DNA from: a virus | Lineage: Duplodnaviria > Heunggongvirae > Uroviricota > Caudoviricetes | Direction: 5' to 3' (one strand) | DNA length: 40,188 nt | Virus record (IMG/VR): IMGVR_UViG_2534681762_000013 | Shown here: positions 1 to 38,240 of the stretch, piece after piece | How the letters are laid out: the number at the start of each line of letters is the position of its first letter | Numbering within the stretch: position 1 is the stretch's first letter | Made by a program: the position numbers and the translations under genes | The notes under the pieces: model-generated | The model's database searches: none | Told to the model about the DNA's origin: nothing | The model's input: only the letters and a program-made list of their open reading frames with translations

Positions 1-483
1 ATGACGAAGAAAAAAGCACATAAACCTGGTTCAGCGACCATCGCGCTTAACAAGCGCGCCCGTCACGAATACTTTATCGAAGAAGAGTTCGAAGCGGGAC
101 TTGCCCTGCAAGGCTGGGAGGTTAAATCCCTGCGCGCAGGAAAAGCCAATATCAGCGACAGCTACGTCCTTCTGCGTGACGGAGAGGCATTTCTGTTTGG
201 CGCTAACATCACGCCAATGGCCGTGGCCTCCACGCATGTGGTGTGCGATCCTACCCGTACCCGCAAGTTACTTCTCAACCAACGCGAACTGGACTCATTG
301 TACGGTCGCGTCAATCGAGAAGGCTATACCGTAGTGGCGCTCTCCCTGTACTGGAAAAATGCCTGGTGCAAAGTGAAAATCGGCGTCGCCAAAGGTAAAA
401 AACAGCACGATAAACGTTCAGATATCAAAGAACGCGAATGGCAGGTGGATAAAGCACGTATCATGAAAAACGCCCACCGTTAA
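1..483 (+). CDS. smpB: SsrA-binding protein SmpB
   Basis: 160-aa ORF at the window start with the characteristic SmpB sequence ([28 protein letters not shown]...), directly upstream of the tmRNA gene as in enterobacteria. Confidence 0.96.
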
Positions 484-697: not shown

Positions 698-1060
698 GGG
701 GCTGATTCTGGATTCGACGGGATTTGCGAAACCCAAGGTGCATGCCGAGGGGCGGTTGGCCTCGTAAAAAGCCGCAAAAAATAGTCGCAAACGACGAAAA
801 CTACGCTTTAGCAGCTTAATAACCTGCTTAGAGCCCTCTCTCCCTAGCCTCCGCTCTTAGGACGGGGATCAAGAGAGGTCAAACCCAAAAGAGATCGCGT
901 GGAAGCCCTGCCTGGGGTTGAAGCGTTAAAACTTAATCAGGCTAGTTTGTTAGTGGCGTGTCCGTCCGCAGCTGGCAAGCGAATGTAAAGACTGACTAAG
1001 CATGTAGTACCGAGGATGTAGGAATTTCGGACGCGGGTTCAACTCCCGCCAGCTCCACCA
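698..1060 (+). ncRNA. ssrA: tmRNA (transfer-messenger RNA)
   Basis: Starts GGGGCTGATTCTGGATTCGACGGG, contains the tag reading frame GCAAACGACGAAAACTACGCTTTAGCAGCTTAA (ANDENYALAA), and ends with the tRNA-like GGTTCAACTCCCGCCAGCTCCACCA; 363 nt. Confidence 0.95.
1016..1053. repeat. attL core: 38-bp direct repeat formed by the 3' end of ssrA
   Basis: ATGTAGGAATTTCGGACGCGGGTTCAACTCCCGCCAGC is repeated identically at 34447..34484; the two copies bracket the prophage. Confidence 0.75.
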
Positions 1061-3047: not shown

Positions 3048-6000
3048 GATTCATACCCCCCCTGATCGCTGAAATTGCTGCGCGCTTTTGCCCTGGCCCT
3101 GCGTTCCCGCTCGTCAAGCTGACGTGCCACTTCACGGGCAATATCCTGCGCACTCTGTCCCGGCTGCGCGACGATATGAATGGGCGCATTTATCTCATAA
3201 CGAATAACTGACGGCGGGCTGTCAGCCTTCACTGGCTGCGTCTGGTATGCACTCGCAGGCAGACTGAACGGATGAAGCGGAACCGCTTCTGCAGGTGTCG
3301 CAGCAACCCCCATAACGCCTGCAACGACAGAGGCAAGCGCAGCAGTACGCCGCCTGCTGGTGACATTTGCCGGTCCGTTCACAATTTCAGGGCCATTTTC
3401 TCCAACAATGCCAAACTGCCCGCGTGGAATGATCCCGCCCGTGTCGTACATCCCTGCGTAAGCCGGGAACCCGCCTGGCGGCAGCACCACTTTGCCGTCA
3501 CTGTTCACCGTGGCGGATTGCTGTTGCGTGACCTGTGCAGGCAGTTTCGCCTTTGCCGCCTCCTTACTGACAATACCGAGCTTTTCCAGTAGCCATGACA
3601 CACCGGATTTAAGAGACTCCAGCGGGTGCATCACCATAGTCAGACCTTCCGCCAGCGCCTCACCAAACCGGCGCCCCATTGCAGCTGCGCTGTTCAGTTC
3701 TTCGGAAGTGGATTTAACCGGCGAAAGTAAATCGCTGAACCAGCCCCACAAGGCCTGCACCCTGTCACCAATCCACTGGAACATGGGCCTGAGCGGCTCA
3801 AAGGCGGCGCTGATTGGCGCTGCAGCGGCTTTGAACCCTTCCACCACGCCCCCCAGAAATGCACTGATGGGCTGCCAGTATTTCCACACAACCAGCGCCA
3901 CACCAGCCAGCGCAGCCACAACCAGCCCTATCGGACTGAGCAGCGCACCCAGCAGGCCGGAAATACCAAACAGCGCGCCGCGAAGTAATGCCAGCGGACC
4001 AGAAACAAGAAAACGCAATACGCCACCGGCAGCTGTCAGCCCACCACGCAACGCCGCCAGCGGGTTCATCACCATACCGATAACATTACGGATGCCTGAC
4101 ATACCGACACGGAACACGGCAAGCGGAGCACCTGCCACCGTTTTCAGTGCATTACCCGCTATTCCGGCTGAGCGACGCAGGGAATTAAGCGGGGCACTCA
4201 GTAACCCTACACTGCCACCGGATGACGCCATACCCCGACGCAACAGGGAAAGTGGCGCACCTGCCAGCCATGACAGGGCACCGCCAGTACGTGTTACCGC
4301 TGCAGCAACGGAAGGTAATGTTTTTACACCCAGCACAGACAGGCCAAACCGAATCACCGCAATCGGCCCCAGCACAGCAGCCACTGCCACGGCAAGTGTA
4401 CCCAGCCCGACAGTGACAGCCGCCGTAGCCGCCGCCACTTTCATCAGCGTGCCAGCCAGCACGGGATTCTGCTCCACCCAGCGACGCAGCGCCCCGGTCA
4501 CGCCCTTAACCATGCCCATAATATCCATCAGCGGCTGGCGCAACGTTTCCCCCAGACTGCTGAAAGCGTTCTGCGCGCCAGTCTTAACCAGCAACCACTG
4601 CGCAGACAATGAATCCTTGTTAATGTCGGATTCTTTCTGCATCGAGCCATTCGCACCACTGCCTGATGTGAGTTTCAGCTGACGCTGCAGCTCCGGCAGG
4701 TTGTTAGCCAGCTTTGCCGCATCATCGCCAAACTCTTTACCAAAAATCATTGTCATGGCTGACAGGCGTTTATCCTGCGGCAGATTGTTGACCTTCTCCA
4801 GAACCCGCTGAATGGTGCCCATGGCATCGGTGGTCATCTGCTTTTCAATCTCCGCAGGATTGAGTTTCAGCAGATTCATACCTTCAAAGAAGCGCTTACT
4901 TTGCATGGTGGCAATGGACAGTTCACGCACCATGGCATTAGAGGCGCTGGAGGCAATTTCCGGGGCAGCCCCAAGAGAAAGGAATGTTGAACCCAGCGCA
5001 GCAGCTTTTCGGAAGTCAAGGCGGTCAGCCACGCCCCCCATACGCTGCAGGACGTTGATAATGTCCCCGCCCTTTGACATGGCGTTATCGTCCAGGTAGT
5101 TCAGCGCATCGCCCAGTTGTTCAATATTGCGCGTCGGCACTTTATAGAGCTGCGCGATTTTCCCCAATCCTTCCGCCAGCTCATCGGCGGGCAGCTCAAA
5201 GGCCGTTGCAGCTTTTGCCGCCGTGGATGCAAAGGCCAGCAGGTCACGTTTCTGGTCCTCAAAGAGATCGTCCTGGCTGGTCACGCCCATACGCGCGCCC
5301 CCTTCAACCAGCGCGGCATAATCTATAGCGCCATTCTCCATCGGCAGCTGCTCACTGGCAGCCTTAATGGCATCCTGCATGTCATAAAACTGTTTTGTAC
5401 GGTTGCCGTTATCGTCCCGCAACCCGTTTACCTGCTTTGCCACGCCTTTCATGGCATCTTCCATGCTGGCGTAGCTTTTCACTGCAGCCAAAACCGGCGC
5501 ACCCATTGCCAGCCCGGCAGCTGTAGTGGTGGCTCCGGCTCCGGCTATGCGATCCCGAACCTCAAGACGGCGCGAATACTGATCACGAACCGCATTCATT
5601 CTCGCCTGCTGTTCACCCAGGTGTTTCAGAGATTTTTGCTGTCGCTCCAGTGCCAGTCGGGTTTCATCGGCGTTCTGCCGTAGCTCACGCTGTGCGCTGC
5701 TCAGTTTCTTTGTATCAAGCCCTGCCTCATTCAGCGCAAGGCGCTGACGCTGCACTGACTGACGCAGCCCGTTATATTTTCCCTGTAAATCGGTGACGCG
5801 ATTTTTAGCCTGCTCAAGCAGCCTGGCCTGAGCTGCCGTCGGGCGGTTGGTCGCAGTAAACTGCGTGGCGAGTTTTGCCGCTTCTTCGCGGGCGGCTTTA
5901 AGGCTGTTACCTGTGACTGCTAGCTGCGCGCTGGCCTTACGGAAGCCATCAATTCTGCCCGCCTGAGAATCTAACTCTTTCAGCCGGGCGCGGCTTTGCT

Positions 6001-8374: not shown

Positions 8375-8932
8375 TTAATCACACAATGTCGCAGGATATT
8401 TGCGGTATAACGTCGAGATCCCCACATCAAACATTAAAGCAACCCGCTGCCGTGTTTCACCTGCAGCAAGTAACCTGCCAGCCTGTGCCCATTGCTCTGG
8501 CGTCAGTTTTGGTCTTCGCCCTCCAATCCTGCCTTTAGCTCTTGCGGCTTCCAGTCCCGCACGGGTTCGTTCCACTATCAACTCGCGTTCCATCTCCGCC
8601 AGTGCCCCCATAACGTGAAAGAAAAACCGCCCCATTGGTGTACTGGTGTCTATGCTGTCAGTCAGACTACGGAAATTAACTCCGCGCTGCCGGAGTTCTT
8701 CTATCAGGGTAACAAGGTGTCGCATGCTTCTTCCCAGCCTGTCGAGCTTCCATACAACCAGCGTGTCTCCCTCTGATAACGTCCTGAGCAACCTTTTTAG
8801 CCCTGGTCTGTCTGCTGTTTTTCCGCTCATTTTGTCTTCAAAAATTAGCTCACATCCTGAGCGTTCCAGTGCATCACGTTGCAAAGCAGTGTTCTGGTCA
8901 TTTGTTGACACCCTCACATAGCCTATTTGCAT
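8375..8932 (-). CDS. serine DNA invertase (Gin/Hin/Cin/Pin family)
   Basis: 185 aa from MQIGYVRVSTNDQ (catalytic Ser motif) with C-terminal HTH; adjacent to a segment flanked by hix/gix-like inverted sites. Confidence 0.88.
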   Translation of the reverse strand: MQIGYVRVSTNDQNTALQRDALERSGCELIFEDKMSGKTADRPGLKRLLRTLSEGDTLVVWKLDRLGRSMRHLVTLIEELRQRGVNFRSLTDSIDTSTPMGRFFFHVMGALAEMERELIVERTRAGLEAARAKGRIGGRRPKLTPEQWAQAGRLLAAGETRQRVALMFDVGISTLYRKYPATLCD

Positions 8933-9017
8933 GAAAAATAACCTCTTAAAAGATAAACAGCATGCCATGATTTTCAGATGCTGGAATCATTTGCTACGTA
9001 ACTGATTCAATACTGGC

Positions 9018-10830: not shown

Positions 10831-12573
10831 TCAGGCATACTCCTCAACAATAACTATTCCCGGGGCACCGTCACCTCCCGATTGAGCCTCACTTCCGGCA
10901 GGTGCGCAGGCTCCGCCTCCGCCAGCACCAAAGCCCTCAGCTTTACCACCACCACGTCCGCTGAATGATGAAGAACTTGCACCACCTATACCGCCTGAAC
11001 CTAGTGGTGTATCCCCCCCGGTACCACCTGCAACAGCTTTAACAGAGATAACCATTGCTCCTGGTGTTTTTGCACTACAGCGAAATGTTCTTAGTACAGT
11101 ACCGGACGATGTCGGACTGGCACCCCATGAAATACCCTGAATATATGATGTGTTTGCAGATGCTCCCCCCGCGCCACCGCCTGTACCACCCGGTGCAGTT
11201 ATCAGGGAACCGAAATAAGTTGTGCCACCTTCACTACCTGAATTTCTTCCGGCTCCCCCCCCTTTACCTGCAGCACCGATAATAACGTTGACTTCGAAAT
11301 CATTATCAACCTCGAAAAATGCTTCAATAAATGCACCGCTCAATCCAGCTCCGGCTGTTGCCTGCTGATTTTCTGTTGTTTCAGGAACCCCACCGCCGCC
11401 GCCACCGCCACCAGAGGCAATGACCCTTATCTTTTTTGTCCCTGGTGTTGGGATATATTTTCCAGAGCTTTTAAAAATATTCGTGTTTAACAAACGACCA
11501 GAGAATCTGGCTTCTCCCAAACCAAGGTATTGTAGAAGGGCTGAAACACTTTTCCCGCTGAGGTTAGTCAAAGTGGCATCGAGGGGCTGTTTCCCCGCCA
11601 GCGCGTTCATCACTGTTGTCGCAAAGTTAGGATCATTCCCCAGCGCAGCTGCCAGTTCATTCAGTGTGTCCAGCGCCTCCGGCGATGAACCAACCAGCCC
11701 GGCAATAGCTGCCTTCACAAATGCTGTAGTGGCAATCTGCGTATTGTTCACAGTCTGCGCCGCAGTCGGAGCCGTTGGCGTTCCGGTCAGGGCTGGGCTT
11801 GCCAGTGGTGCTTTCAGTGCCAGCGCATTGTTAATGGTGGTACTGAAATTCGGGTCATTATTGATAGCTGCCGCAATTTCTTTCAGCGTATCCAGCGTTG
11901 CCGGTGCGCCACCTATCAGGGCAAGAATAGCGGCCTGTACAAAGGCTGTACTGGCAATCAGGGTGCTGTTGTTTCCTGCCGGTGGCGTTGGCGTTTTAGG
12001 CATGCCTGTCAGAGTCGGACTGTCTTTTGGTGCATATTGCGAATGAGGATCAACCGCAGCAAGATGCTTTGCCATCAGGTCATCCACATACACCTTAAGT
12101 TCCAGCACCTTATCATCCACATATTTGCGGGTTGCCAGAACCACAGCGGGGTCAATTTTCAGGGTGATGTTATCCGTGCTGCTGGTAATCAGTACCATTC
12201 GCACGGTCTGCGTGCGTCCGCTGCCCTCCGCCAGCTTCGGCTTGTAGCTCTCCGGGCAGTTTCCCACAGCAATTAGCGCACCTGTTTCATCAAACAGGCC
12301 GACTTCACGAATCCACCACCCGCCCTCATTTTCCGGGATCACCTGCTCAGCAATAATCTGGCTGCTGTTCTGTGGGTCGATATACAGCATATTCAGCGCT
12401 GCGCGGCGTTCCTCAGCCACTAACGCGGTCTGTTGCGCGTTGGGTGTGGGCAGCATACCACCACCGCTGCCCACCGCCATATGGGTAATTTTTAGTGGGA
12501 CACCGAGCGCGGCGGCGCTTACCAGTTTCGCCGCGCCGATATCCGTCAGCAGGGTGTAAAATTTTGCGCTCAT
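10831..12573 (-). CDS. H: tail fibre protein (gpH-like) with constant N-terminal part and a Gly-rich variable C-terminal part
   Basis: 580 aa; N-terminus MSAKFYTLLTDIGAAKL...MAVGSGGG matches remembered P2 gpH; crossover site B lies inside the gene at ...LQYLGLGEA. Confidence 0.85.
   Translation of the reverse strand: MSAKFYTLLTDIGAAKLVSAAALGVPLKITHMAVGSGGGMLPTPNAQQTALVAEERRAALNMLYIDPQNSSQIIAEQVIPENEGGWWIREVGLFDETGALIAVGNCPESYKPKLAEGSGRTQTVRMVLITSSTDNITLKIDPAVVLATRKYVDDKVLELKVYVDDLMAKHLAAVDPHSQYAPKDSPTLTGMPKTPTPPAGNNSTLIASTAFVQAAILALIGGAPATLDTLKEIAAAINNDPNFSTTINNALALKAPLASPALTGTPTAPTAAQTVNNTQIATTAFVKAAIAGLVGSSPEALDTLNELAAALGNDPNFATTVMNALAGKQPLDATLTNLSGKSVSALLQYLGLGEARFSGRLLNTNIFKSSGKYIPTPGTKKIRVIASGGGGGGGGVPETTENQQATAGAGLSGAFIEAFFEVDNDFEVNVIIGAAGKGGGAGRNSGSEGGTTYFGSLITAPGGTGGGAGGASANTSYIQGISWGASPTSSGTVLRTFRCSAKTPGAMVISVKAVAGGTGGDTPLGSGGIGGASSSSFSGRGGGKAEGFGAGGGGACAPAGSEAQSGGDGAPGIVIVEEYA
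11512..11537. other. invertase crossover site B (hix/gix-like) inside H
   Basis: TTCTCCCAAACCAAGGTATTGTAGAA; inverted partner of site A. Confidence 0.55.
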
Positions 12574-23216: not shown

Positions 23217-24983
23217 ATGAACACGACACTGACCCCCGCAGACCTCGATCCCCGTCGGCAGGCCATGCTGCTGTACTTTCAGGGATACCGCGTAGCCCGC
23301 ATTGCTGAAATGCTGGGCGAAAAAGTTGCAACCGTTCACAGCTGGAAGAAGCGCGACAAGTGGGGCGACTATGGGCCGCTGGATCAGATGCAGCTCACCA
23401 CCGCCGCACGTTACTGCCAGCTCATCATGAAGGAGCAGAAAGAAGGGAAAGACTTCAAGGAAATTGACCTGCTGGCGCGCCAGTCAGAGCGTCACGCCCG
23501 GATCGGAAAATTTAACGACGGCGGGAACGAAGCAGATTTAAACCCGAAAGTAGACAACCGTAACAAAGGTCCGCGCAGGCAGCCGGAAAAGAACGTTTTC
23601 TCCGACGAACAGATCGAAAAGCTGGAAGAAGTCTTCCATGCCTCAATGTTCGACTATCAGCGTCACTGGTTTGAAGCCGGAAAAACAAACCGCATCCGTA
23701 ATCTGCTCAAGTCGCGCCAGATTGGCGCCACGTTTTATTTTGCCCGTGAAGCATTGATTGACGCCCTGCTGACCGGGCGCAACCAGATTTTCCTTTCTGC
23801 CAGTAAGGCGCAGGCGCACGTTTTTAAGCAGTACATCATCGACTTTGCCAAAGAGGTGGATGTTGAGCTGAAAGGCGATCCCATGGTGCTGCCCAATGGC
23901 GCAGCTTTGTACTTCCTCGGCACCAATGCCCGTACTGCGCAGAGCTACCACGGCAACCTGTATCTTGATGAGTATTTCTGGATACCGAAATTCCAGGAGC
24001 TGCGCAAGGTGGCCTCCGGGATGGCCATTCACAAAAAATGGCGACAAACCTACTTTTCCACGCCGTCCAGCCTGACTCACAGTGCCTATCCGTTCTGGTC
24101 CGGTGCGCTGTTTAATCGGGGCCGCGCCAAAGCGGACAAGGTGGATATTGACCTGACCCACAGCAACCTTGCGCGCGGCCTGCTCTGCCCTGACGGACAG
24201 TACCGCCAGATCGTCACCGTGGAGGATGCGGTGCGCGGAGGCTGTAACCTGTTCGACCTGGACCAACTGCGCATGGAGTACAGCCCGGACGAATACCAGA
24301 ACCTGCTGATGTGCGAATTTATTGACGATCTGGCGTCAGTATTCCCGCTCAGCGAGCTGCAGGCGTGCATGGTGGACAGCTGGGAAGTCTGGACCGATTT
24401 TCAGGCGCTGGCGCTGCGCCCGTTTGGCTGGCGGGAAGTCTGGATCGGTTACGACCCAGCGAAAGGTACGCAGAACGGTGACAGCGCAGGCTGCGTGGTT
24501 ATGGCACCACCCACTGTACCTGGCGGAAAGTTCCGCATTCTGGAGCGTCATCAGTGGCGCGGGATGGACTTCCGCGCCCAGGCTGATGCCATCAAAAAGC
24601 TGACGCAGCAGTACAACGTGACTTATATCGGCATCGACTCGACCGGCGTCGGTCACGGTGTTTATGAGAACGTAAAAGCGTTCTTTCCTGCCGTGCGGGA
24701 GTTTGTCTACAACCCCAACGTCAAAAACGCCCTGGTGCTCAAAGCGTACGACATTATCAGCCACCGTCGTCTGGAGTTTGACGCCGGGCACACTGACATT
24801 GCGCAGTCCTTTATGGCAATCCGCCGTGCCACTACCGCCAGCGGCAACCGCCCTACCTACGAAGCGAGCCGCAGCGAAGAAGCCAGCCACGCAGATTTGG
24901 CCTGGGCAACGATGCACGCACTGTTTAACGAACCGCTGCAGGGCGAATCCGCCAATACCAGCAATATTGTGGAGATTTTTTAA
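23217..24983 (+). CDS. P: terminase ATPase (large) subunit gpP-like
   Basis: 588-aa ORF divergent from O; size and position as P2 gpP. Confidence 0.88.
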   Translation: MNTTLTPADLDPRRQAMLLYFQGYRVARIAEMLGEKVATVHSWKKRDKWGDYGPLDQMQLTTAARYCQLIMKEQKEGKDFKEIDLLARQSERHARIGKFNDGGNEADLNPKVDNRNKGPRRQPEKNVFSDEQIEKLEEVFHASMFDYQRHWFEAGKTNRIRNLLKSRQIGATFYFAREALIDALLTGRNQIFLSASKAQAHVFKQYIIDFAKEVDVELKGDPMVLPNGAALYFLGTNARTAQSYHGNLYLDEYFWIPKFQELRKVASGMAIHKKWRQTYFSTPSSLTHSAYPFWSGALFNRGRAKADKVDIDLTHSNLARGLLCPDGQYRQIVTVEDAVRGGCNLFDLDQLRMEYSPDEYQNLLMCEFIDDLASVFPLSELQACMVDSWEVWTDFQALALRPFGWREVWIGYDPAKGTQNGDSAGCVVMAPPTVPGGKFRILERHQWRGMDFRAQADAIKKLTQQYNVTYIGIDSTGVGHGVYENVKAFFPAVREFVYNPNVKNALVLKAYDIISHRRLEFDAGHTDIAQSFMAIRRATTASGNRPTYEASRSEEASHADLAWATMHALFNEPLQGESANTSNIVEIF

Positions 24984-26029
24984 TGAGTGAACACGACGCC
25001 CTGACCAGTACCGCGCCAGTACAGGAAGCCGCGCAGCAGAAGAACACAACTCAAGCCGAAGCATTCAGCTTTGGCGATCCTATCCCGGTACTGGACCGCC
25101 GCGAACTGCTGGACTATGTGGAATGCGTGCAGATGGACAAATGGTATGAGCCGCCCGTGAGCTTTGACGGCCTGGCTCGCACCTACCGCGCCGCCGTGCA
25201 TCACAGCTCACCGATTGCCGTTAAGCGCAACATCCTGACCAGCACGTTTATCCCGCATCCGCTGCTGAGCCAGCAGGCATTCAGCCGCTTCGTGCAGGAC
25301 TACCTGGTGTTTGGTAATGCCTATCTGGAGAAACGGACGAACCGGCTGGGCGGCATTCTGTCACTGGAGCCATCGCTGGCGAAATACACCCGCCGCGGGA
25401 CCGACCTCGACACTTACTGGTTTGTGCAATACGGCATGACCACGCAGCCCTACGAGTTCACCAAAGGCAGCATCTTCCACCTGATGGAGCCGGACTTAAA
25501 CCAGGAGATTTATGGACTACCAGAATACCTGTCCGCTATCCCTTCCGCCCTTCTGAATGAGCCCGCCACGCTGTTCCGCCGCAAGTACTACATCAACGGC
25601 AGCCACGCGGGCTTTATCATGTACATGACCGACGCCGCGCAGAACCAGGAGGACGTGAACAACATCCGCCAGGCCATGAAAAGCGCCAAAGGGCCAGGCA
25701 ACTTCCGCAACCTGTTTATGTATTCGCCCAACGGGAAGAAGGACGGCATTCAGATAATCCCACTATCAGAGGTAGCGGCAAAGGATGAGTTTCTGAACAT
25801 CAAGAACGTGAGCCGCGATGACATGATGGCAGCGCACCGTGTGCCGCCACAGATGATGGGGATCATGCCAAGCAATGTTGGGGGTTTTGGGGATGTGGAA
25901 AAGGCCAGCCTTGTTTTTGTAAGAAACGAACTAATCCCCCTCCAAAAAAGGCTGCAAGAACTCAATGATTGGTTACAAGAAGATGTAATACGCTTTGAAC
26001 CCTACAAGTTAAATTTAGGTGATGAATAG
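24983..26029 (+). CDS. Q: portal protein gpQ-like
   Basis: 348-aa ORF whose start overlaps the P stop (TAATG). Confidence 0.88.
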   Translation: MSEHDALTSTAPVQEAAQQKNTTQAEAFSFGDPIPVLDRRELLDYVECVQMDKWYEPPVSFDGLARTYRAAVHHSSPIAVKRNILTSTFIPHPLLSQQAFSRFVQDYLVFGNAYLEKRTNRLGGILSLEPSLAKYTRRGTDLDTYWFVQYGMTTQPYEFTKGSIFHLMEPDLNQEIYGLPEYLSAIPSALLNEPATLFRRKYYINGSHAGFIMYMTDAAQNQEDVNNIRQAMKSAKGPGNFRNLFMYSPNGKKDGIQIIPLSEVAAKDEFLNIKNVSRDDMMAAHRVPPQMMGIMPSNVGGFGDVEKASLVFVRNELIPLQKRLQELNDWLQEDVIRFEPYKLNLGDE

Positions 26030-26062
26030 TAATCACCTACTCATCAACAACAATATTCAAAC

Positions 26063-26095
26063 AGGCCGCTAATCATGCGGCCTTAATTTATTTAC
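26063..26095. terminator. bidirectional hairpin terminator between Q and the convergent small-gene operon
   Basis: AGGCCGC-TAATCAT-GCGGCCT stem-loop with AT/T-rich flanks. Confidence 0.45.
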
Positions 26096-26361
26096 CAATT
26101 TCGACCAGGAGCCTTTAACCATGTAGAACAAGAATAATTTAATGAGGCCCAAGATTTTTGTAAACGAGCAACAAAGATCACATCGTTACTATCAACATTT
26201 GCTTTAAGTCCATCACGCAATTGCGCTGCAGAAAGCGTGGTATCGATTAACCAAAAGGATTCTAAATGTTTGCAGTAGTCAAACTTTTTGAGATAGGTAA
26301 AAACATCATCATAGTTCTTGCCTGGAGCTTTCAAGTCATACGTTACACAATAGACCGCCAT
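26092..26361 (-). CDS. hypothetical 89-aa protein (weak VapD/Cas2-like N-terminal pattern)
   Basis: AT-rich ORF with a GGAG RBS, 3 nt downstream of the zinc-ribbon gene; the N-terminus MAVYCVTYDLK... loosely recalls the first strand of VapD/Cas2-fold proteins. Confidence 0.5.
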   Translation of the reverse strand: MAVYCVTYDLKAPGKNYDDVFTYLKKFDYCKHLESFWLIDTTLSAAQLRDGLKANVDSNDVIFVARLQKSWASLNYSCSTWLKAPGRNW

Positions 26362-26364
26362 CTT

Positions 26365-26547
26365 TTATGCTCCGCACTTTTTATCATTTGGAGAACATCT
26401 TAATCGACGACATCTGCGACAATATGATTGTGGAATCAAACGTTCCCCTTCCATCATTCTAAAACCAAATACCTCTTCAATTTTGTTCAGATCACCACTT
26501 GCAGCGACCCCACAACAAGGACAATAAGCTTTAACTTGATACGGCAT
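26365..26547 (-). CDS. hypothetical 60-aa C4 zinc-ribbon protein
   Basis: CPCC...CRRC cysteine pairs; start taken at the Met with a GGAG RBS; AT-rich; forms an operon with the 89-aa gene. Confidence 0.45.
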   Translation of the reverse strand: MPYQVKAYCPCCGVAASGDLNKIEEVFGFRMMEGERLIPQSYCRRCRRLRCSPNDKKCGA

Positions 26548-26647
26548 GTTTATCTCCATTTCACATGTTTTGAGTAGAGTAATCTATCCGTCCAAGCAAA
26601 AATGAGACATAGCTCTTGAAAGCTGTCCCAAACCAACCAGCGCGCGC

Positions 26648-26666
26648 TCGTATCCCCGCCACGCCT
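26648..26666. other. candidate cos (cohesive end) site
   Basis: The reverse complement of TCCCCGCCACGCC at 26652..26664 is GGCGTGGCGGGGA, matching the start of the 186/P2 cohesive-end sequence as remembered; position after Q fits P2 organisation. Confidence 0.35.
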
Positions 26667-26868
26667 GCCCGCTTTGTGTAGTGGTTTTCATGCACCTGCA
26701 TGACATAAGCAAAAGCCCGCCAGTTCTGGCGGGCCTGAGCAAAAACGATCCTCAAACGATCATGCGATTTCATGCGGCATAGACATGCACAACAGCGCTA
26801 ACGCCTCGCGTGGCTCGTTGTTCAACCTTGCGGACGGTAAAAACCAGTTTTATCGTCCGCAACGTTCG

Positions 26869-27102
26869 CTAATGTAACCAGCTGTCGTCCTCCCAGACCT
26901 GCTGCATTATTTCCATCACTCGCTTTTTATCTTCATCCAGTTTTAACCCGCTCAGCTCTACGCCGTTGGCGCTGCCCTTACGGATACGAATTGCTGTTTT
27001 GGGATACAGAGGGCGCAAATTACGGTAAAGCTCGGATTCAAGGGCGTCCAGTGTAGCCTGGCTAATCTTCTGCTCTTTATCGATCATTATTTCAATGCGC
27101 AT
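26869..27102 (-). CDS. DinI-family protein
   Basis: 77 aa MRIEIMIDKEQKISQATLDALESELYRNL...EIMQQVWEDDSW, the DinI fold pattern; downstream gene of the LexA-box operon. Confidence 0.8.
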   Translation of the reverse strand: MRIEIMIDKEQKISQATLDALESELYRNLRPLYPKTAIRIRKGSANGVELSGLKLDEDKKRVMEIMQQVWEDDSWLH

Positions 27103-27113
27103 ACAGATTCCCC

Positions 27114-27302
27114 TTAACTGGTTACATCCATTGACCGGCAGTATTCATGGCTGCGGATTTTCGCCATCAGCTCGTCGGTCAGTTCGGACACCCACTGGAT
27201 AGCCAGCCGCTTTTCTTCGTCGCTACACTCACTAGCCGCTACAAGCTTGATAAAAAAATCAATGCGCTGGAGCTTCAACGACTCCAAAAGATAATCCTGC
27301 AT
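27114..27302 (-). CDS. small SOS-operon protein, candidate Tum-like antirepressor
   Basis: 62 aa from the Met with a GGAGGG RBS; located between the LexA box and the DinI-like gene, mirroring the SOS-induced tum locus of phage 186; the ORF-track 98-aa version would span the promoter. Confidence 0.45.
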   Translation of the reverse strand: MQDYLLESLKLQRIDFFIKLVAASECSDEEKRLAIQWVSELTDELMAKIRSHEYCRSMDVTS

Positions 27303-27463: not shown

Positions 27464-27760
27464 TCAGTACCACTGACGCCATTTGTCATCTTCCTGCAGA
27501 CGGTGGTTGCGGTAAAAAATACGCAGCCCGGCACCTGACGGAATACTGCCGCCGCGCAGAAGCAGGTCAATCTCTGACTCGCTACCATCGAACCCTCTGG
27601 AACTCAGTTCTGCCTCAAGCTGCAGGCGCTGCTGATCCGAAATAGTCTGTTTATATGCTTTTTTCCGCTTCGGTTTTACCAGCCTTAACCTGGCTGTCAG
27701 CTCCCGCCGTTCCTTCTGGCCCATGTTGTGGAGATATTCCTGCAGCTCCCTCTCATCCAT
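27464..27760 (-). CDS. hypothetical protein downstream of A
   Basis: 98-aa ORF whose 5' end overlaps the A stop; basic central region; no recognisable motif. Confidence 0.35.
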
Positions 27761-29871
27761 AGTTTTAATATCGGGTAAATCCCCCCTGATTTGTTCAGAT
27801 TTTCAACAGGGGGACAGTTATTGCCACGAGTCCAAGGGGCGCAAGCGCCCTGGTCGGCTGCCGCCTCCTGAACATCAACGGCCTTACGAACCTTTTTCCA
27901 CTTCACCGCGTGCGTGCAAATCTTGCCCTCTGCAATCGGGGACCAGATGCCATAGATACGGATACCGTGATCGCCGTAGGCGCTCGGTTCGTCGTTAAGC
28001 TCATAAGCCGTGCGGACAAGGTGATGTTTGCGGGGAACCAGCACGCCGCCCTGCTTCATGATGTAGGTGGCAAAGCAGCCCGCATCAGCCGCCGCCAGTA
28101 CCGCATCCAGACGCGGATTATCCAGTACCGGCGCACCCGCTTTGCGTTCGCCCTGCACTCTCGCCACCTGACCAGCCAGCAAGCGCAGCTCGCGGTATGC
28201 CTGACGCCCTGGAATACCAAAGAAACGAAATTGCTGGACACGGTGCAGTGACGCCCAGGCGCTGACATGCTCGGCACTGTCACGCAGCGATCTGCCGGTT
28301 TCTTTGCTGATTTCTTTAGCCAGCCCACGCCCGTCGATGTTCTTGCTGATGTATTTGGCGATGTAGCTGGTCGGCGTGCCCTTGCGCGGGTTGATTAGCT
28401 CGGATTTGAAGCGCGGCCCGGTGTTGGTGCCCAGCTCCTCGCGGTCTTCACGGATGGCAAACTTGCGCAGCATCGCAGTGATGAAACGGCGGTCTTTTTT
28501 GCGCATGAAGCACAACAGATGCCAGTGCACTGTGCCGTCATGGTGCGGCTCCGCAACGCGGACGCCATACCAGCGCAGCCCGGCCTTGTGCATTGCCTTG
28601 CGGAAAGCGGCGAACGTATCAACCAGATAGTCACTGCTCTGCCGGACTGTGGCACTGGTCCACTTCGGATTAGGTCTGCCGTTGTTGAGGGTTGCGTGGA
28701 AGCGTGACGGGCAGGTGATGGTATAGAACACTGCGCAGTCTCCGCGCATTTCCGCTATCAGCTCCAGTCCCTTAACACAGGCCATCATTTCATTACGGCG
28801 GTGTGCCGGGTTGCTGTTACTGGCGTTCACCACGTCTTCCATGTCCAGCGTGTCACCGTCTTCGTTGACCAGCTCATGTGAGCGGAAGAACTCCAGCGAT
28901 TTGCGGCGCTGCTCGCGCTTGTGGATCACGGCTTCATAGCTGACATACGGGGACGCTTTTTTGTTGACCAAGCAGACAGCACGCAGCTGTTCCTCCCGCC
29001 ACTCGCAGCGCATCTGCCACAATTTGCGATACCACCAGTCCGCGCACAGCATCCGCGCCAGCGACGGTGGGATCAGTTCATAGGGCACCGGCTTGCGTCG
29101 ACGCTTTTTGCGGCGTAACTGCTCAAACGCAGGCGGGATGATCTCAAGGCGCATCGCCTCTGCTGCAACCCTTTCCCATGCCTGGCGGATTTCTTCTGGT
29201 TTAACATCGTCGCTGACAAACAGATCACCGCAGGCCGCATCAAGACACATGCTCATATGAGCCGCAACCAGCGTGGAAAGACGCTTGACCTGATCCTGAT
29301 TCATTTCAGGCAGTACCAGCAGCCCCTCCAGCCCGTCATGACTTGCCATGAACCGGAAAGAGGCAGACACCTGACTGTCACGCACGCGCTCCAGCCGCTC
29401 AAGACAGGGCCTAATTGTTTCGCGCAGGTAGCGGGAATAGGCTTTTGCTCTGCCCAGGCTATGGAAATATTTAATCCGCTCCAGCAGAGGCTTGCTGATA
29501 TGGGACGGCATGGCGTTAACGTCAGCCAGAATGACCAGATCGGGATTAAAACGCTGCTGCTCGCGCGCCATTTTGGCACGACTAATCAGCCGGTCCTGCT
29601 CCATTTCGCGCTGGACAGGATCACGGGATTCATTGAAGAAATAGCGTTCCCAGACCTCATCGCTCAGCGTCTCACGGCGCAGCTGCTCCTGCTCGTTATC
29701 CGCAGCGTAAAGAGCAATCAGGTTTGAAAGCGCAGACCCCGGCGCAACTTCCGCCGGGTCCAGATATGGGTTAACCGCTTTTTTGGGGTTATTCCATGAA
29801 AAGGCCACGGCGGCCTCATTCGAGCCGCCGGTGGTTGGTGCATTATGTAATGTGAATTTACTCACTGCCAC
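27697..29871 (-). CDS. A: replication initiation endonuclease gpA-like (rolling-circle)
   Basis: 724 aa with the conserved [13 protein letters not shown] tyrosine motif and HWHLLCF histidine cluster. Confidence 0.9.
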
Positions 29872-32595: not shown

Positions 32596-32676
32596 TGTTT
32601 TATACGATTCAAGAGTTGATACGAAAAGATACTACGATCCAATATTTGATACGTCAATAGGATTAAAAAATGATAC
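32596..32676. promoter_or_regulatory. lysis-lysogeny switch region with repeated GATAC-containing operator-like motifs
   Basis: TTGATACG at 32616..32623 and 32646..32653 (30 bp apart), plus GATAC variants at 32628 and 32672, in the 119-bp interval between divergent apl and cI. Confidence 0.35.
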
Positions 32677-33302
32677 AGGTAAAGACAGGCGAGAACACCG
32701 GGGGTAGAGAGGCCATCCATAGGCTAATGGCAGCCTACGATTTCAAATCAAGACAGCAATTGTGCGACCATCTTGGCGCATCTAAAAGCACCATGGCAAA
32801 CAGATACTTAAGAGATAGTTTCCCTGCAGAATGGGTAATTCAGTGCGCTCTTGAGACAGGCGTTTCTTTACTCTGGCTTACCACAGGGCAAGGCGAGCCG
32901 GGTTCAAATATTGACATGCAAAAAGATATCAATTTCGTGAACTCCGGCAAAGTTAAACACCTTTCTGACCTTGTTTCTCCCGAAATTGACAAAGTGACAC
33001 TTTCTAGCGGCTCTTTGGTGGATACAGGTAAAGCAATCATTGACAGCAGCTTGCTTCCTTCCAATTCCAGTAACTTACTCTTAGTAAATACCGGTGGTGA
33101 TTCATACCTAGTGGATCGCAGCCAAACACCACCAGTAAATGGGGTGTGGTTGGTCGATATTGATGGAATAAAAAGTATTGTGAAGTTAACCCGTATCCCC
33201 GGAAACAGATTGGTAGTTCATCAAGATGAATCATCTTTTGAGTGCAGCCTGGATGATATCGAGGTTGTAGGCCACGTCTTAAAAGTTATTAAGAGCCTTT
33301 GA
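32670..33302 (+). CDS. cI: 186 CI-like immunity repressor
   Basis: 210 aa; N-terminal HTH region ...MANRYLRDSFPAEWVIQCALETGVSLLWLTTGQG resembles 186 CI; immediately upstream of int. Confidence 0.78.
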   Translation: MIQVKTGENTGGREAIHRLMAAYDFKSRQQLCDHLGASKSTMANRYLRDSFPAEWVIQCALETGVSLLWLTTGQGEPGSNIDMQKDINFVNSGKVKHLSDLVSPEIDKVTLSSGSLVDTGKAIIDSSLLPSNSSNLLLVNTGGDSYLVDRSQTPPVNGVWLVDIDGIKSIVKLTRIPGNRLVVHQDESSFECSLDDIEVVGHVLKVIKSL

Positions 33303-33303
33303 T

Positions 33304-34329
33304 ATGACCATCAGAAAACAGCCAAACGGGAAATGGTTGTGTGAGTGCTACCCTAGCGGGCGCGATGGCAAGCGCGTGCGCAAGCAATTTGCGACGAAAG
33401 GCGAGGCCATAGCATTCGAAAACTTCACAATGGATGAAGTGAACAAAAAGCCATGGCTAGGCGAAAAGGATGATCGGCGCCAATTGTCAGAAGTAATTAA
33501 GCAGTGGCATTCACTTTACGGACAGACTCTTGCTGACCCCAAGCGCCTGATGGCAAAACTTAACATTATTTGTAATGGCCTGGGTGATCCCATTGCCTCG
33601 GAGCTGACTGCCGGTGACTTTACAAAATACCGTGAAGCACGCCTAAAAGGTGAAGTCAAAAATGAAGATGGCTTGCCTATGTCGCCAGTTAAGCCCCGCA
33701 CGGTAAACCTTGAACAACGCAACCTATCATCAGTTTTTGGCACGCTGAAAAAGCTGGGCCACTGGTCAGCCCCCAACCCACTCGCCGGGCTTCCAACATT
33801 TAAAATCGCAGAGGGGGAGCTGGCGTTCCTGGCGCCGGAAGAAATTAAACGCCTGCTGGATGCCTGCGCTGATTCAGAAAACCCCAGCCTGCTCATGATT
33901 GCAAAAATCTGCTTAGCTACCGGCGCCCGCTGGAGTGAAGCCGAAAACCTGCAGGGCCATCAGTTATCTAAATACCGAATCACCTACACCAAAACAAAGG
34001 GCAAGAAAAACCGAACGGTTCCTATATCTCAGGCGCTGTATGACGAGTTACCAAAGAACCGAGGGAAGTTATTCACGCCATGCAGAAAAGCCTTTGAGCG
34101 TGCAGTCAAGCGGGCAAGCATTGACTTGCCAGAGGGCCAATGCACCCACGTTCTGCGCCATACTTTCGCCAGTCATTTTATGATGAACGGCGGAAATATA
34201 CTGGTACTGCGCGATATTCTGGGCCACGCCGATATTAAAATGACAATGATTTACGCCCACTTCGCACCCGACCACCTGGAAGATGCAGTGACAAAAAACC
34301 CGCTTCACAATCTCAACTGGAACCGTTAA
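33304..34329 (+). CDS. int: tyrosine integrase (P2/186 Int family)
   Basis: 341 aa with the C-terminal catalytic region HVLRHTFASHFMMNGGNILVLRDILGHADIKMTMIYAHF (R...HxxR...Y); adjacent to attR. Confidence 0.9.
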   Translation: MTIRKQPNGKWLCECYPSGRDGKRVRKQFATKGEAIAFENFTMDEVNKKPWLGEKDDRRQLSEVIKQWHSLYGQTLADPKRLMAKLNIICNGLGDPIASELTAGDFTKYREARLKGEVKNEDGLPMSPVKPRTVNLEQRNLSSVFGTLKKLGHWSAPNPLAGLPTFKIAEGELAFLAPEEIKRLLDACADSENPSLLMIAKICLATGARWSEAENLQGHQLSKYRITYTKTKGKKNRTVPISQALYDELPKNRGKLFTPCRKAFERAVKRASIDLPEGQCTHVLRHTFASHFMMNGGNILVLRDILGHADIKMTMIYAHFAPDHLEDAVTKNPLHNLNWNR

Positions 34330-34446
34330 TTTATGGCGGCACTTTGGCGGCACAGACTTAAAATCACATAAAACCCGACAAATACAAAAAACAATAACGT
34401 GATGATTTTAAAAGTAAATGTATGTTTTTATTAGGCTAACAATGGT

Positions 34447-34484
34447 ATGTAGGAATTTCGGACGCGGGTTCAACTCCCGCCAGC
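34447..34484. repeat. attR core: second copy of the 38-bp ssrA 3'-end repeat
   Basis: Identical to 1016..1053. Confidence 0.75.
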
Positions 34485-34613
34485 CAATCATGATTGGACG
34501 GTATAAGGACAACACCAATAAAAACAGGAAGTTAGCAGTCTCAGCAGGACACCGACCAGACGGTGAAGAGACATAAAAGGATACGCAAAGGAGCCGCGGC
34601 TCCTGGTGACATG

Positions 34614-34638
34614 AAAGCCCACAGATGTGGGCTTTTTC
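34614..34638 (+). terminator. intrinsic terminator-like hairpin
   Basis: AAGCCCA-CAGATG-TGGGCTT followed by TTTT. Confidence 0.4.
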
Positions 34639-34646
34639 GTTGATGG

Positions 34647-37600
34647 TCAGAACGACCAGTTCACACCAGCTACCCCGTTCCACGGGGATTCCACACCGGC
34701 ACCATGGCTATACCCCACCCCAAGATGCCCGCTTAACGTACTGCTGAATGAGGCTTTAATACCTGCCTGGTATATTCCACGTCTGCCCGACAAATCATTG
34801 ACGAAATTACCGTCACTATTCACTTTCACCCGGTTATCATCGACAAATTCTTTGCGCACAGCCGCCTTCAGCCACGGCTCAACTTCCATACCGTTCCCCA
34901 GACGCATGTTGTAACTCAGCGTTGCACCCAGTTCACGATATAAACTGCGGGTATCGACTGATTTCGATTCCATGCCATTGGATAAATGATATTCAGGGTT
35001 ATCAGCGGTGAACCCCCGTTAACGATGCATACGGCGTCAGGTTCCAGTTACCATCGGTAAATCGCATCCCGGTTTCAATGTGACCGCCCAGCCCGTTGCT
35101 GCGATAACTGCCGTTGGCGGCTCCACCGCTGCCAACCGTGGAGTCGCGAGCTTCGGTACCTGCTAATACCAATAAATTACCGCCATTTTCCAGCAACATA
35201 TTGGTCGCTAAATTGCCGGAAATGGAAAAAGTGCCGTACTGGTGAGTACCGCTGATTTCAATACCGTTAGCCGTGCTCGTCTGGAGAGCGGCACCGCTGT
35301 TCTGGACGATATCTGTCGCTTTGCCATTATCGTTAACTGTCAGCGTACCGCCTTCATTGATCTTTGTTTTTATTGCCTCTCCGTTAGCTGAAACTGTTTG
35401 TATTCCGCCGTCGTTAATCGTTGTCTCATTCGCCACCCCCTCGACGATTTGTTCGCCGCCGGTGAGCGTCGTGCCTGTCGCAGTGGCTTTTGTTTTGACG
35501 ATCTCCCGTCCGCCCGTATTGACCTGTGTTTTGTCAGAAGAGGTGTCTGACTCCACGGTTAACACGCCGCCATTTGCCAGCAGGATATTGTTCGCCGCAC
35601 CCTGCTCGATGCTGAACGCGACGCCATCCGCGCGTGTTCCTGTGACCCGCGTCGCCCTGGTGGTTGCAACCAAAGCGCCCTGGCTACTCTGCTGTATCCC
35701 CGTTGCGCTGCCTTTCTCCCGCACATCGAGTGTGCCGCCGTCATTAAGCACCGAGTTTTCAGCCAGACCGCCCTCATTAACTACCTGTGAACACCCATTA
35801 ATAATGGAACCTTCCGCTATCCCGTTTGCCATAATTTGTTGTAGGCCAGAGACGATATCGGTATTGATCGCCTTACCATAATTCTGAACAGTTTGTGTGC
35901 CGCCATTGATGTGCGTTTTGTCAGTTGACCCACCATCAACAATTTGTTCACCACTTTCAATATTTGCCTCAGTGGCTAAACCATATACCGTTTGCTTGCC
36001 ACCTTTGATATTTGCTTTATCAGAAGTGGCACTGGCATATATTGTTTGGGTGCCAGCACTATTAAGTACAGTGCCAACATCTTTTCCATAAACATCCATT
36101 TTGCCGTTGGCATTAATAATCGTATCAACTGCCCGGGAACCAGTGACGACTGTTAATGAGCCAGCGTTTTCCAGCACTACATTTTTAGCTTCTGAATTCC
36201 TGATGTAGAAAGCATCACCATAACTGTTGGTTCCTTCGATAAGGGTTCCGGAAGTTGTGGAAGCAATTAATGCGCCGCCGGATTGTTGCTCAACATGCTT
36301 AGCCTCACCACCGTCCTGAACCTCCAGAACGCCACCATTATTAAGTCTGGTGGTATCTGTTTTAGCCTCCTTCTGGACAATCAGCTTACCGCCAGCATCA
36401 ACGGTAGTATTTTTCGCCGAGGTTTTAGCCACTACCGTCAGTTCGCCGGTATTTTCCAGCACAACATAATTAGCCTCCCCTCCGGTAATAGTGAAGTGAG
36501 AGAGCTTGTTGTATCCTTCAATATCAGTCCCTGCGCCCGTGTTGGCAACTAAAGCACTGCCCGTCTCCTGGTTAACCCCATGTGCAATACCGCCGGTATA
36601 GACAATCAGCGAGCCTCCGGCGCTAATATTGCTGCCAATTGCCGTACCATCTTTCTCAACAACTTGCTGGCTCCCGGAGGATATAATTGTTGTGTCAGCT
36701 TTCCCACCGCTTTTGATATTTTGCGTTCCGCTGTTGATATTGGTGCCTGTGGCTATGCCATAATTATTAAGATTCTGTGTGCCACCATTAATTATGGTAT
36801 TTGTCGCGTTTCCTGCAACATCCATAACCCCGCCATTATCTATTCGGGTCGCATCAGCTTTAGCATTCGTTAAAACTGACATTGTTCCTTTATCTTTAAT
36901 AATCGTCTTGTTTGCGGAATGAGATACTTCTAAATGGCCTCCATTTTCCAGCAACACATTGTCTTCCACTTTATTGTGGATGGAGAATGCACCTTCACTA
37001 TTCGTACCGCTCACCGTCGTACCGTTAGTGTTTGTTTTTAAAATTGCACCATCGTGCTGGGTAACATTTGTTGCCGTACCACCACTAACATCAAGCACGC
37101 CACCGGAATAAACTTCAATAACATCCGAGGTGCTGGTGTTATCAACAATTTGCGTGCCACCAGAATAGATCTGCGTAATTTTTGCCGTTGACTTACTATT
37201 CAGAGACTGAGTTCCGCCTTCAATCGTCGTGTCCAGCGCACGGCTCTCATATACTCTTTGCTCACCGCCATTTTTAATGGTTGTTGTTTCTACTGTGCTC
37301 TGTTCAACATACTGTCGACCACCATTTATGGTTGTGTTCGTTGCCAGACTTCCTTGTACTACGTCCTGAGAGCCAGACTTATTTATCGTTGTACCATCAG
37401 CATGCCCTTGAACTTTTACTATCTGGCTACCACCATCAATGAGTATTCCATTCGCACTCCCTCCCTCTACGCGTGAAGCACCGCCCTTAATTGTCGTTCC
37501 ATTGCTGATACCCCCTTTATAAACGTCCTGATTGCCACTCTCGATTGTCGTACCTGTGGAAATACCCCCGTCATGAATTGACTGTCTGCCACCGTTAATG

Positions 37601-37911
37601 GTTGTATTATTAGCCTGCCCCACAAAATTGTTATGACTTCCTATATCTTGATATCCACCAGATTCAATAAGACTTCCATTAGATACCCCGCCATGAACAT
37701 TCTGCTGGCCATGGTTGATAATATGAGTGTTATTTGTTGTACCTCGTTCATCCACTTTTTGGTTGCCATCTACAGTCTCATCGTTTACCACACCAATAAC
37801 ATCAGGAGTGAAGGCCGCCATACCGGGCGGGGCATATATCAAGGCAGATATCAATAAGGAAAGTACTGAGCGGCGACAATAATGGGGACTGGTCCTGTTC
37901 ATAAATTTCAT
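34647..37911 (-). pseudogene. autotransporter adhesin-like gene, disrupted
   Basis: Signal peptide (MKFMNRTSPHYCRRSVLSLLISALIYA) and a roughly 970-aa passenger of degenerate Gly/Thr/Asn-rich repeats in one frame (to 35002); the last ~108 aa of a beta-barrel ending ...GVNWSF lie in another frame (34647..34973); total barrel region too short for a complete translocator. Confidence 0.65.
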
Positions 37912-38240
37912 CCTCTGAAAAGTGAATACTGAGTAGCGTTTAAGCGACCTTAGCTCTGCTGCAACATCAGCCCACAGGCACCAGACCAGGGGATTCATCC
38001 TGAAGAGACAGCGCAAGTGTATTGTGTTCACCGCTCATCAAAGACATCATGATGAAATGATGATATTCCACATAAGAAAGAAGCATTTTTTAAACGCAGT
38101 GCGCTGAAGTATGGTTGGATAAAAAAGTCAATCTATTCAGGGAATACGGGGGTATTCTTTTCTTTCGACAATCAGGTCGTCGGCAAAATAAAATGATTTA
38201 CATAATCGTTTCTGATGAATATCTTCTGCTCACATAAAAA

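Follow-up and report, generated by a model that had tools for sequence, protein, structure and literature searches.

Which role could two small genes play when wedged between the portal gene and the cos site of a P2-like prophage? The question is raised by a 40,188-nucleotide (nt) stretch of Caudoviricetes DNA (IMG/VR record IMGVR_UViG_2534681762_000013; here called the window), in which genes for a Cys-rich, zinc-ribbon-like protein of 60 amino acids (aa) and for an 89-aa protein lie in tandem on the minus strand, occupying 0.46 kb of the interval from the portal stop codon to cos. Acquired horizontally, this accessory (moron) operon is a rare mobile cargo of the cos-proximal hotspot, and its 89-aa product is remotely homologous to Cas2 and VapD. 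What is new is a stand-alone variant within the Cas2/VapD superfamily, together with a previously unannotated small Cys-rich partner. As to function, we tentatively read the operon as a conflict module expressed in lysogens, in which an orphan Cas2-like nuclease effector would be accompanied by a small nucleic acid-binding regulator or adaptor. As to origin, we favor its assembly from two independently mobile genes.

Both open reading frames (ORFs) are protein coding, evolve under strong purifying selection, and form a coupled operon. Related modules with ~79% DNA identity across both genes were found in other Escherichia coli strains, Citrobacter, Kluyvera, and Klebsiella phages. Pairwise Nei-Gojobori comparisons of these homologous loci with the window gave synonymous divergences (dS) of 0.9 to 2.0, at which the ratio of nonsynonymous to synonymous divergence (dN/dS) was 0.04 to 0.17 for the 89-aa gene and 0.005 to 0.09 for the 60-aa gene. 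The spacer between the genes was always 2 or 3 nt and was kept in all eight other P2-like loci compared. Because dN/dS is low at such divergence and the spacing is conserved, both ORFs represent real genes, including the zinc-ribbon gene, which lacks any annotation in RefSeq. A read-through fusion of the two ORFs, which share a frame in the window, was ruled out, since the spacer of Klebsiella-type loci measures 2 nt and the frames there differ.

The original prediction described two AT-rich genes 3 nt apart, each preceded by GGAG and located between the portal terminator and cos; all of these elements were found in the sequence. The GGAG of the 89-aa gene is embedded in the end of the zinc-ribbon gene, 8 nt ahead of the ATG, and a second GGAG (26557-26554) lies 6 nt ahead of the zinc-ribbon ATG at 26547. 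A mechanical ORF list extends the zinc-ribbon ORF to an ATG at 26559 (64 aa). The product is likely the 60-aa protein starting at 26547, and the ATG at 26559 is an unlikely start, because it overlaps the GGAG and because PHROG 19700 aligns to residues 5 to 64. The GC content was 0.355 to 0.395 in 200-nt windows starting at 25900 to 26400 and 0.48 to 0.63 in the flanks. The low-GC patch already begins in the portal gene, the final ~130 nt (25900-26029) of which are as AT rich as the cargo and divergent from those of sister prophages. The recombination that brought the module apparently also replaced this 3' end, with the left junction inside the portal gene and the right junction exactly at 26640/26641.

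At the portal end of the pair, a GC-rich hairpin with a stem that was invariant in a six-locus alignment is likely a bidirectional terminator. Beyond the other end, the 19-mer GGCGTGGCGGGGATACGAG, which we take to be the 186/P2-type (186-like) cohesive-end overhang, sits in an invariant block of the locus alignment and was matched exactly in the related prophages and loci inspected for it (L001, L002, L003, L107, L108, L008, and L058). An Rfam search of positions 25800 to 27200 returned only a chance Trp-leader match over the terminator (E value, 0.35), a repeat search returned nothing relevant, and no P2 late-promoter element (TGT-N12-ACA) was seen by eye upstream of the pair. A 70-aa ORF (26561-26773, minus strand; PHROG 28685) spans cos and the terminator following dinI; it is called hypothetical in some phage records and is probably a spurious annotation that has spread among P2-like genomes.

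Among 5,426 complete E. coli genomes, 17 had the pair, nine of them as identical copies and eight at ~79% identity; the adjoining cos-DinI segment, from 26640 onward, was common to 1,255 E. coli genomes. Comparison of site occupancy across related prophages, a check proposed with the original prediction, uncovered both an empty site and an alternative cargo. The sister prophage of E. coli HCM-28C-2 (L107) has ~154 bp from the portal stop codon to the conserved cos block, and it matches the window again from precisely position 26641, which is 6 nt away from the cos 19-mer. In the prophage of E. coli ChlosBP-23-1 (L108, 1-2318), the same portal-cos slot holds genes for an AAA ATPase and an S8 family peptidase, an arrangement that is also present in the hotspot table of Rousset 2022 (PMC9122126). 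The P2 accessory and defense hotspot was defined in that work as the region between gpA and gpQ (PMC9122126), and modular cargo has been described there (PMC13586616); the pair is variable cargo between these genes, beside cos. In the same table, the 89-aa protein (WP_024221516) appears as hypothetical and is not among the tested or named systems (PMC9122126). Homology to structural or core regulatory proteins, or conservation of the pair as core genes, had been named beforehand as evidence that would speak against an accessory module; no such homology was found, and the genome counts show cargo. The proposed assignment to a cos-proximal accessory and defense region holds in that the site is a hotspot that is empty or otherwise filled elsewhere. 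On the P2 map, old and tin lie on the gpA side of cos, and the pair lies on the portal side.

For the 89-aa product, a loose resemblance to VapD- and Cas2-fold proteins had been suspected, and it is borne out by subthreshold Cas2 matches, a structural model, and the alignment of residue D9. The protein scored 18.7 bits (E value, 0.002) against the Pfam Cas2 family (PF09827), i.e., below the gathering cutoff of 23.8 bits, and had only weak matches to the PADLOC models for Cas2 (E value, 1e-3) and Cas2b (E value, 0.015). Pfam Cas2 was recovered at an E value of ≤0.1 in 19 of 34 close relatives, and one distant relative scanned (P0150) passed the cutoff with 25.1 bits. Several relatives have precomputed PF09827 hits, and several are labeled Cas2 in public databases. 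The AlphaFold2 model built with the family alignment (predicted local distance difference test [pLDDT] score, 92.9) points to a Cas2/VapD fold, i.e., a small ferredoxin fold. Sequence searches of the PDB with single sequences and profiles yielded no significant match; the two best, nonsignificant matches of the family profile were Cas2 proteins, in which VTYDL was aligned on the catalytic-Asp motif. A Foldseek search against viral predicted structures gave no match at an E value of ≤0.001. PHROG 1090, which matched the protein at 5e-30, has no assigned function. The original statement that the pair cannot be assigned to a known family or system therefore stands, since Pfam, NCBIfam, PADLOC, and PHROGs gave only subthreshold Cas2 matches and unnamed PHROGs.

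Invariant in close relatives were V6, T7, Y8, D9, L10, G14, Y17, K31, W37, R49, D57, N59, D60, W71, W81, and L82. D9, at the C-terminal end of beta1, did not vary among the 34 close relatives, and its conservation across 71 distant ones was 90% or more; both the Pfam and the PDB alignments place it opposite the YD(I/V) of Cas2. Across the 71 divergent members, Y8, L10, Y17, W37, D60, V64, and W81 were likewise at least 90% conserved. A profile search of 1.84 billion representatives retrieved 3,779 clusters at an E value of ≤0.001 and 1,041 at ≤1e-10. Among 150 listed family matches, nearly all were single-domain proteins of 85 to 115 aa, and one was a tandem duplication; N-terminal extensions of some relatives were rejected as extra domains because they look like miscalled starts. 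The duplication, the metagenomic protein P0049 (184 aa), carries two Cas2-like domains in one chain and also matches Pfam ChrB_N (E value, 3e-7). It suggests that the functional unit of the Cas2-like proteins may be a dimer, and it provides a link to other Cas2-like regulatory domains.

The 89-aa protein is nevertheless not Cas2 proper, because it fails both the curated score and the association with cas1 and with CRISPR arrays. No CRISPR-like repeat array was detected in the window or in 111 other sequences examined. In 55 bacterial loci with a total of 148 flanking genes, no family recurred more than three times, and neither Cas1 nor any other cas family was among the 25 commonest families. 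The protein is not a CRISPR component, and the label "CRISPR-associated Cas2" of several phage records is inappropriate. The labels "SinR" and "CRISPR-associated endoribonuclease" in phage records were likewise rejected as annotation carry-over, and the "sinR-like" note on phiFL1A gp05 is unsupported.

A zinc-ribbon gene precedes the Cas2-like gene in 13 of 13 fetched loci with at least 71% Cas2-like identity, all of them enterobacterial P2-like elements, but in none of 78 fetched loci with ≤69% identity. Most of the latter lack a coupled upstream ORF altogether, and their upstream genes are rare and unrelated. Even within the P2-like loci, alleles are shuffled: the identities of the two genes correlate only with an r of 0.40, and in L058, a Klebsiella-type zinc ribbon (95% identity) accompanies a Cas2-like gene of the window type (90%), with the converse in L059. 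Immediately upstream of the Cas2-like gene, two alphaproteobacterial loci (L023, 3753-3941; L029, 1889-2167) have a related small ORF containing ...QHRIAASF(D/G)VN(P/Q)GRVNEVLKG..., which by eye looks like a helix-turn-helix protein and would be a candidate partner different from the zinc ribbon.

Solo relatives of the Cas2-like gene were found in a wide range of mobile and conflict-related contexts. These include a cassette of an integron array in Pseudomonas abyssi, with no phage genes nearby; a mobile region of Vibrio harveyi with DndB and ArdC; small mycobacterial integrative elements; marine contigs, beside Thoeris ThsA/ThsB, Abi_2, and Tae4; a site beside a SEFIR/TIR gene and a CBASS operon; and a phage in which a single antiparallel gene separates the packaging module from the replication module. 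In Pseudomonas sp. SH1-B (L010, 2466-4270), the start of a relative with 69% identity follows kwaB by 10 nt, both being on one strand; this kwaA-kwaB-cas2-like arrangement looks as if the gene had been appended to a Kiwa operon. Distant relatives (36 to 43% identity) reside on very small plasmids with few other genes, i.e., 4.86-kb ColE1-type plasmids of Klebsiella and Enterobacter (L119) and Rahnella pHW114B (L120). On the latter (3806-5929), the Cas2-like gene lies directly upstream of, and overlaps the start of, a gene for a PIN-like domain; PIN_10 was also seen twice among chromosomal neighbors of Cas2-like relatives. On viral contigs, the commonest neighbors were CI-type repressors, Cro-type regulators, ImmA proteases, and antirepressors. 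In Enterococcus phiFL1A and Staphylococcus SN8, the gene is co-oriented with the integrase and repressor genes and opposite to the early lytic genes, as is typical of exclusion genes expressed from prophages; SN8 also has a TIR gene near it. This distribution fits a self-sufficient accessory conflict gene, neither a core phage function nor an obligately neutralized toxin.

The 60-aa protein had been predicted to be a C4 zinc ribbon. A small Cys-rich protein is indeed encoded, but it has seven cysteines (C9, C11, C12, C43, C46, C51, and C58), four of which would bind zinc, and the motifs CPCC (9-12) and CRRCRRLRC (43-51); its identity as a zinc ribbon is plausible. Invariant features are CPCC near the N terminus, DLNKIE, FGFR, RLIPQSYCRxCRxLxCSP, and a basic tail; the net charge is +5. 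PHROG 19700 matched the protein at an E value of 9e-44, and no family for it was found in Pfam, NCBIfam, or PADLOC. A set of 5.8 billion proteins contained only 11 clusters, all at least 72% identical. The AlphaFold2 model was of moderate confidence (pLDDT score, 75.5). Positions 133 to 174 of a 197-aa phage family (PHROG 34160) were also matched (E value, 1e-7); by this match, the small Cys-rich module appears to exist as the C-terminal domain of a larger protein as well.

The three most divergent clusters of the zinc-ribbon gene all lack the Cas2-like gene (L112 to L118). In L112 to L114, an island next to smpB that also encodes a P4-type integrase carries the gene, in divergent orientation to one for a GAPS4-like PD-(D/E)xK protein; the L112 island contains no Cas2-like gene. 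In L115 and L116, it lies between an AIPR gene and an integrase gene, divergent from the former, and in L117, it precedes a DUF8370/8371 gene, with a cos-like site at a distance of 370 nt. A close homologue of the GAPS4-like gene, with two more genes, is located across cos from the zinc-ribbon gene in Klebsiella phage ST512-KPC3phi13.6 (L002, 3819-6569). In both this phage and L112 (2045-4798), a 333-aa GAPS4-like gene followed by two genes of similar sizes stands divergent beside the zinc ribbon.

In the lysogen-expressed conflict module that we tentatively propose, the Cas2-like protein would probably be dimeric, and it keeps the beta1-end Asp that is used catalytically in Cas2 and VapD nucleases. 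Because of its fold, the invariant Asp, and the precedents of Cas2 and of BPSL1038 (described below), it may be expected to cleave or bind nucleic acid. Expressed from the prophage and normally working without a dedicated partner, it would act against other phages or mobile elements, in defense or in exclusion. Lysogenic expression and such a role are suggested by the placement of relatives in immunity regions with a lysogenic orientation, in defense islands, in an integron cassette, and in the P2 hotspot. The zinc-ribbon protein, which is separately mobile, would bind nucleic acid and serve neighboring cargo as a regulator or adaptor; since it is basic and is encoded twice in divergent orientation to other defense genes, we consider this role more likely than that of a cognate antitoxin. 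The pair would then be a weapon in phage-versus-phage conflict.

Several points weigh against this proposal. The literature searched contained no phenotype for the pair or for either protein, and PADLOC defense models gave nothing beyond the weak Cas2 matches. Between cos and the zinc-ribbon start, a promoter scan revealed no convincing sigma-70 consensus promoter, which bears on the expected expression in lysogens. Whether Cas2 proteins act as nucleases is itself a matter of debate, and the conserved Asp could be structural. Moreover, a position beside phage repressors also fits a regulatory role, and the evidence for enrichment of defense genes near solo relatives came from examples and family counts, with no matched control. 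For the zinc-ribbon protein, the proposal of a regulator draws on three solo contexts and the charge of the protein, whose model had no significant structural neighbor or fold match.

A broader version of the idea, which we regard as rather unlikely, is that a large unrecognized family of free-living Cas2-fold proteins confers antiphage protection on its own, with the zinc ribbon as a portable regulator or sensor for various cargos (Cas2-like, GAPS4-like, and AIPR); the family may then represent the stand-alone nuclease type from which CRISPR Cas2 was recruited. About equally doubtful is a toxin-antitoxin (TA) system of the VapX-VapD type, in which a Cas2/VapD-like RNase toxin would be paired with a zinc-ribbon antitoxin and autorepressor and would serve prophage stabilization or abortive infection. 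The locus itself looks the part: two small, adjacent, cotranscribed genes are separated by a 3-nt spacer with the ribosome-binding site inside the upstream gene, the smaller and basic product is encoded upstream, the translational coupling is conserved across a dS of >1, and VapD toxins and GhoS have the Cas2 fold, too. Even the different helix-turn-helix-like ORFs in L023 and L029 would fit partner swapping. A toxin should not occur without its neutralizing partner, however, and the Cas2-like gene was without the zinc ribbon in 78 of 78 loci at ≤69% identity, mostly without any coupled upstream ORF; a constitutive toxin could not persist in this way. The zinc-ribbon gene, in turn, occurs without the Cas2-like gene in three lineages, and alleles recombine freely between loci (the mixed pairs of L058 and L059). 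The TA reading as originally stated is not supported by these observations.

The same solo occurrences and allele shuffling, along with the modular nature of hotspot cargo (PMC13586616), would suit two unrelated cargo genes that act independently and are only transcribed together, the operon being a by-product of cargo stacking. We judge this unlikely, because the 2- to 3-nt spacing with its embedded ribosome-binding site persisted at saturated synonymous divergence in each P2-like locus examined, and because all 13 loci at ≥71% Cas2-like identity carry the zinc ribbon. A counterdefense function is one that we would give decidedly little credence: the Cas2-like protein would be a decoy or sponge that protects the phage or prophage, e.g., by poisoning spacer acquisition by Cas1-Cas2 or by antagonizing another host system. 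Its size is typical of antidefense proteins, it has the predicted Cas2 fold, many temperate phages carry it, and it is found in mobile elements near other conflict genes. Yet relatives also occupy chromosomal defense islands and an integron cassette without nearby phage genes, they are oriented with lysogeny genes and stand outside early lytic operons, and the catalytic-type Asp is invariant. Finally, the frequency of repressors, antirepressors, and ImmA among neighbors on viral contigs and the ChrB_N match of the tandem relative could be taken to indicate a regulator of lysis-lysogeny or expression, i.e., a small ferredoxin-fold domain of the ACT, ChrB_N, or PaaX_C kind that would modulate induction in a regulatory or ligand-binding capacity. 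This is very improbable, given that the pair is beside cos, far from the CI/immunity region, and that relatives in the integron cassette, small plasmids, and chromosomal defense islands have no phage switch to regulate.

Whichever of these applies, the pair belongs to an abundant branch of the Cas2 fold (~3,800 clusters, counted at 50% identity) that in the loci examined lies away from CRISPR and at conflict-gene sites. To our knowledge, Cas2 is universal in CRISPR adaptation, and the origin of Cas2 from VapD-like toxins is a long-standing hypothesis. Were a defense or exclusion phenotype confirmed, a minimal effector of ~90 aa would be added to the defense repertoire and Cas2-like proteins outside CRISPR would become accessible to experiment; if the effector were protective by itself, it would be among the smallest single-gene defenses. 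If there were no phenotype, the Cas2-like gene would be one more hypothetical gene of the hotspot. The pair is easy to test, since it measures 0.46 kb and resides in E. coli, where a prophage with an empty site offers a natural control.

The element carrying the pair is a 186/P2-like prophage integrated beside ssrA (Table 1). The window starts with smpB and the tmRNA gene ssrA, continues with the prophage, which includes tail genes, capsid genes, and a Dam methylase gene, and ends with host genes beyond the integrase gene. Beyond the integrase gene lie an adhesin gene and a DUF5507/DUF5508 gene (stretch 33304-38031). Replication endonuclease gene A, which encodes 802 aa and is intact in the prophage of E. 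coli L3Cip3, is broken in the window into ORFs of 724 and 98 aa by a 1-base homopolymer difference at 27775 to 27781 (C6 in the window and C7 in L3Cip3), the prophages being otherwise 99.9% identical; this is either a sequencing error or the mark of a defective prophage.

Table 1. Features of the window, with positions counted from its first nucleotide
Feature	Position	Strand	Remarks
smpB	1-483		Start of window
ssrA (tmRNA gene)	698-1060		Followed by the prophage
DNA invertase, Cin/Gin type	8375-8968		~1.9 kb from tail-fiber gene
Tail-fiber gene	10831-12573		
Terminase	23217-24983	+	
Portal gene	24983-26029	+	
Low-GC mosaic module (portal 3' end, terminator, both genes)	25900-26640		GC profile; alignment with empty-site prophage L107
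GC-rich hairpin AGGCCGC-loop-GCGGCCT	26063-26083	none	Terminator scan; between the convergent portal gene and pair
89-aa protein gene, predicted Cas2/VapD fold (PHROG 1090)	26092-26361	-	ATG at 26361-26359
Coupling junction	26362-26373	-	GGAG 26373-26370 within zinc-ribbon 3' end; TAA 26367-26365; spacer AAG 26364-26362
60-aa basic, Cys-rich, zinc-ribbon-like protein gene (PHROG 19700)	26365-26547	-	ORF and ribosome-binding site
cos cohesive-end 19-mer GGCGTGGCGGGGATACGAG	26647-26665	-	~100 nt upstream of zinc-ribbon start
DinI gene	26869-27102	-	
Replication gene A	27464-29871	-	
CI-type repressor/immunity region	32670-33302		
Integrase	33304-34329		
AIDA-type autotransporter adhesin	35002-38031		Beyond integrase

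Set against known systems, the 89-aa protein resembles CRISPR Cas2 (PF09827) in length and in its beta1-end Asp, which aligns with the catalytic Asp of Cas2, and some members of its family reach the Pfam threshold. It differs in its own subthreshold score, in the absence of cas genes and CRISPR arrays from the window and the fetched flanks, in the family's own motifs (W37, N59-D60, and W81-L82) and short C-terminal helix, and in that its gene is an accessory one that stands alone in prophages, islands, an integron, and plasmids. A literature search on solo or phage-borne Cas2-like proteins returned only BPSL1038 and general reviews. BPSL1038 of Burkholderia pseudomallei (PDB 7VXR) is a stand-alone Cas2/VapD-like dimer with DNase and RNase activities (PMC10491678) and has in common with the 89-aa protein a stand-alone Cas2 fold, the beta1-end Asp, and a C-terminal helix. 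The two proteins share only 8% identity in a structural alignment, with no match at the sequence level; the 89-aa family lacks the exact D(X20)SST motif of BPSL1038 and instead has D9 and an S35 that is nearly invariant. BPSL1038, which has no assigned physiological role either, provides a biochemical precedent only.

Like VapXD, the pair is a small two-gene operon in which a Cas2-fold gene lies downstream of a small partner, and solitary vapD genes are known (PMC10491678). Unlike in VapXD, the partner is Cys rich, zinc-ribbon-like, and unrelated to VapX, and the partnership is confined to one lineage, with both genes also found alone; no Pfam or NCBIfam sequence match to VapD, VapX, or GhoS was obtained. 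Compared with the other cargo of the P2 hotspot, i.e., old, tin, and the systems of Rousset 2022, the pair is much smaller than typical systems, and no PADLOC model matches it. With that cargo, it shares the same hotspot, a low GC content, its own terminator, rarity, and replaceability.

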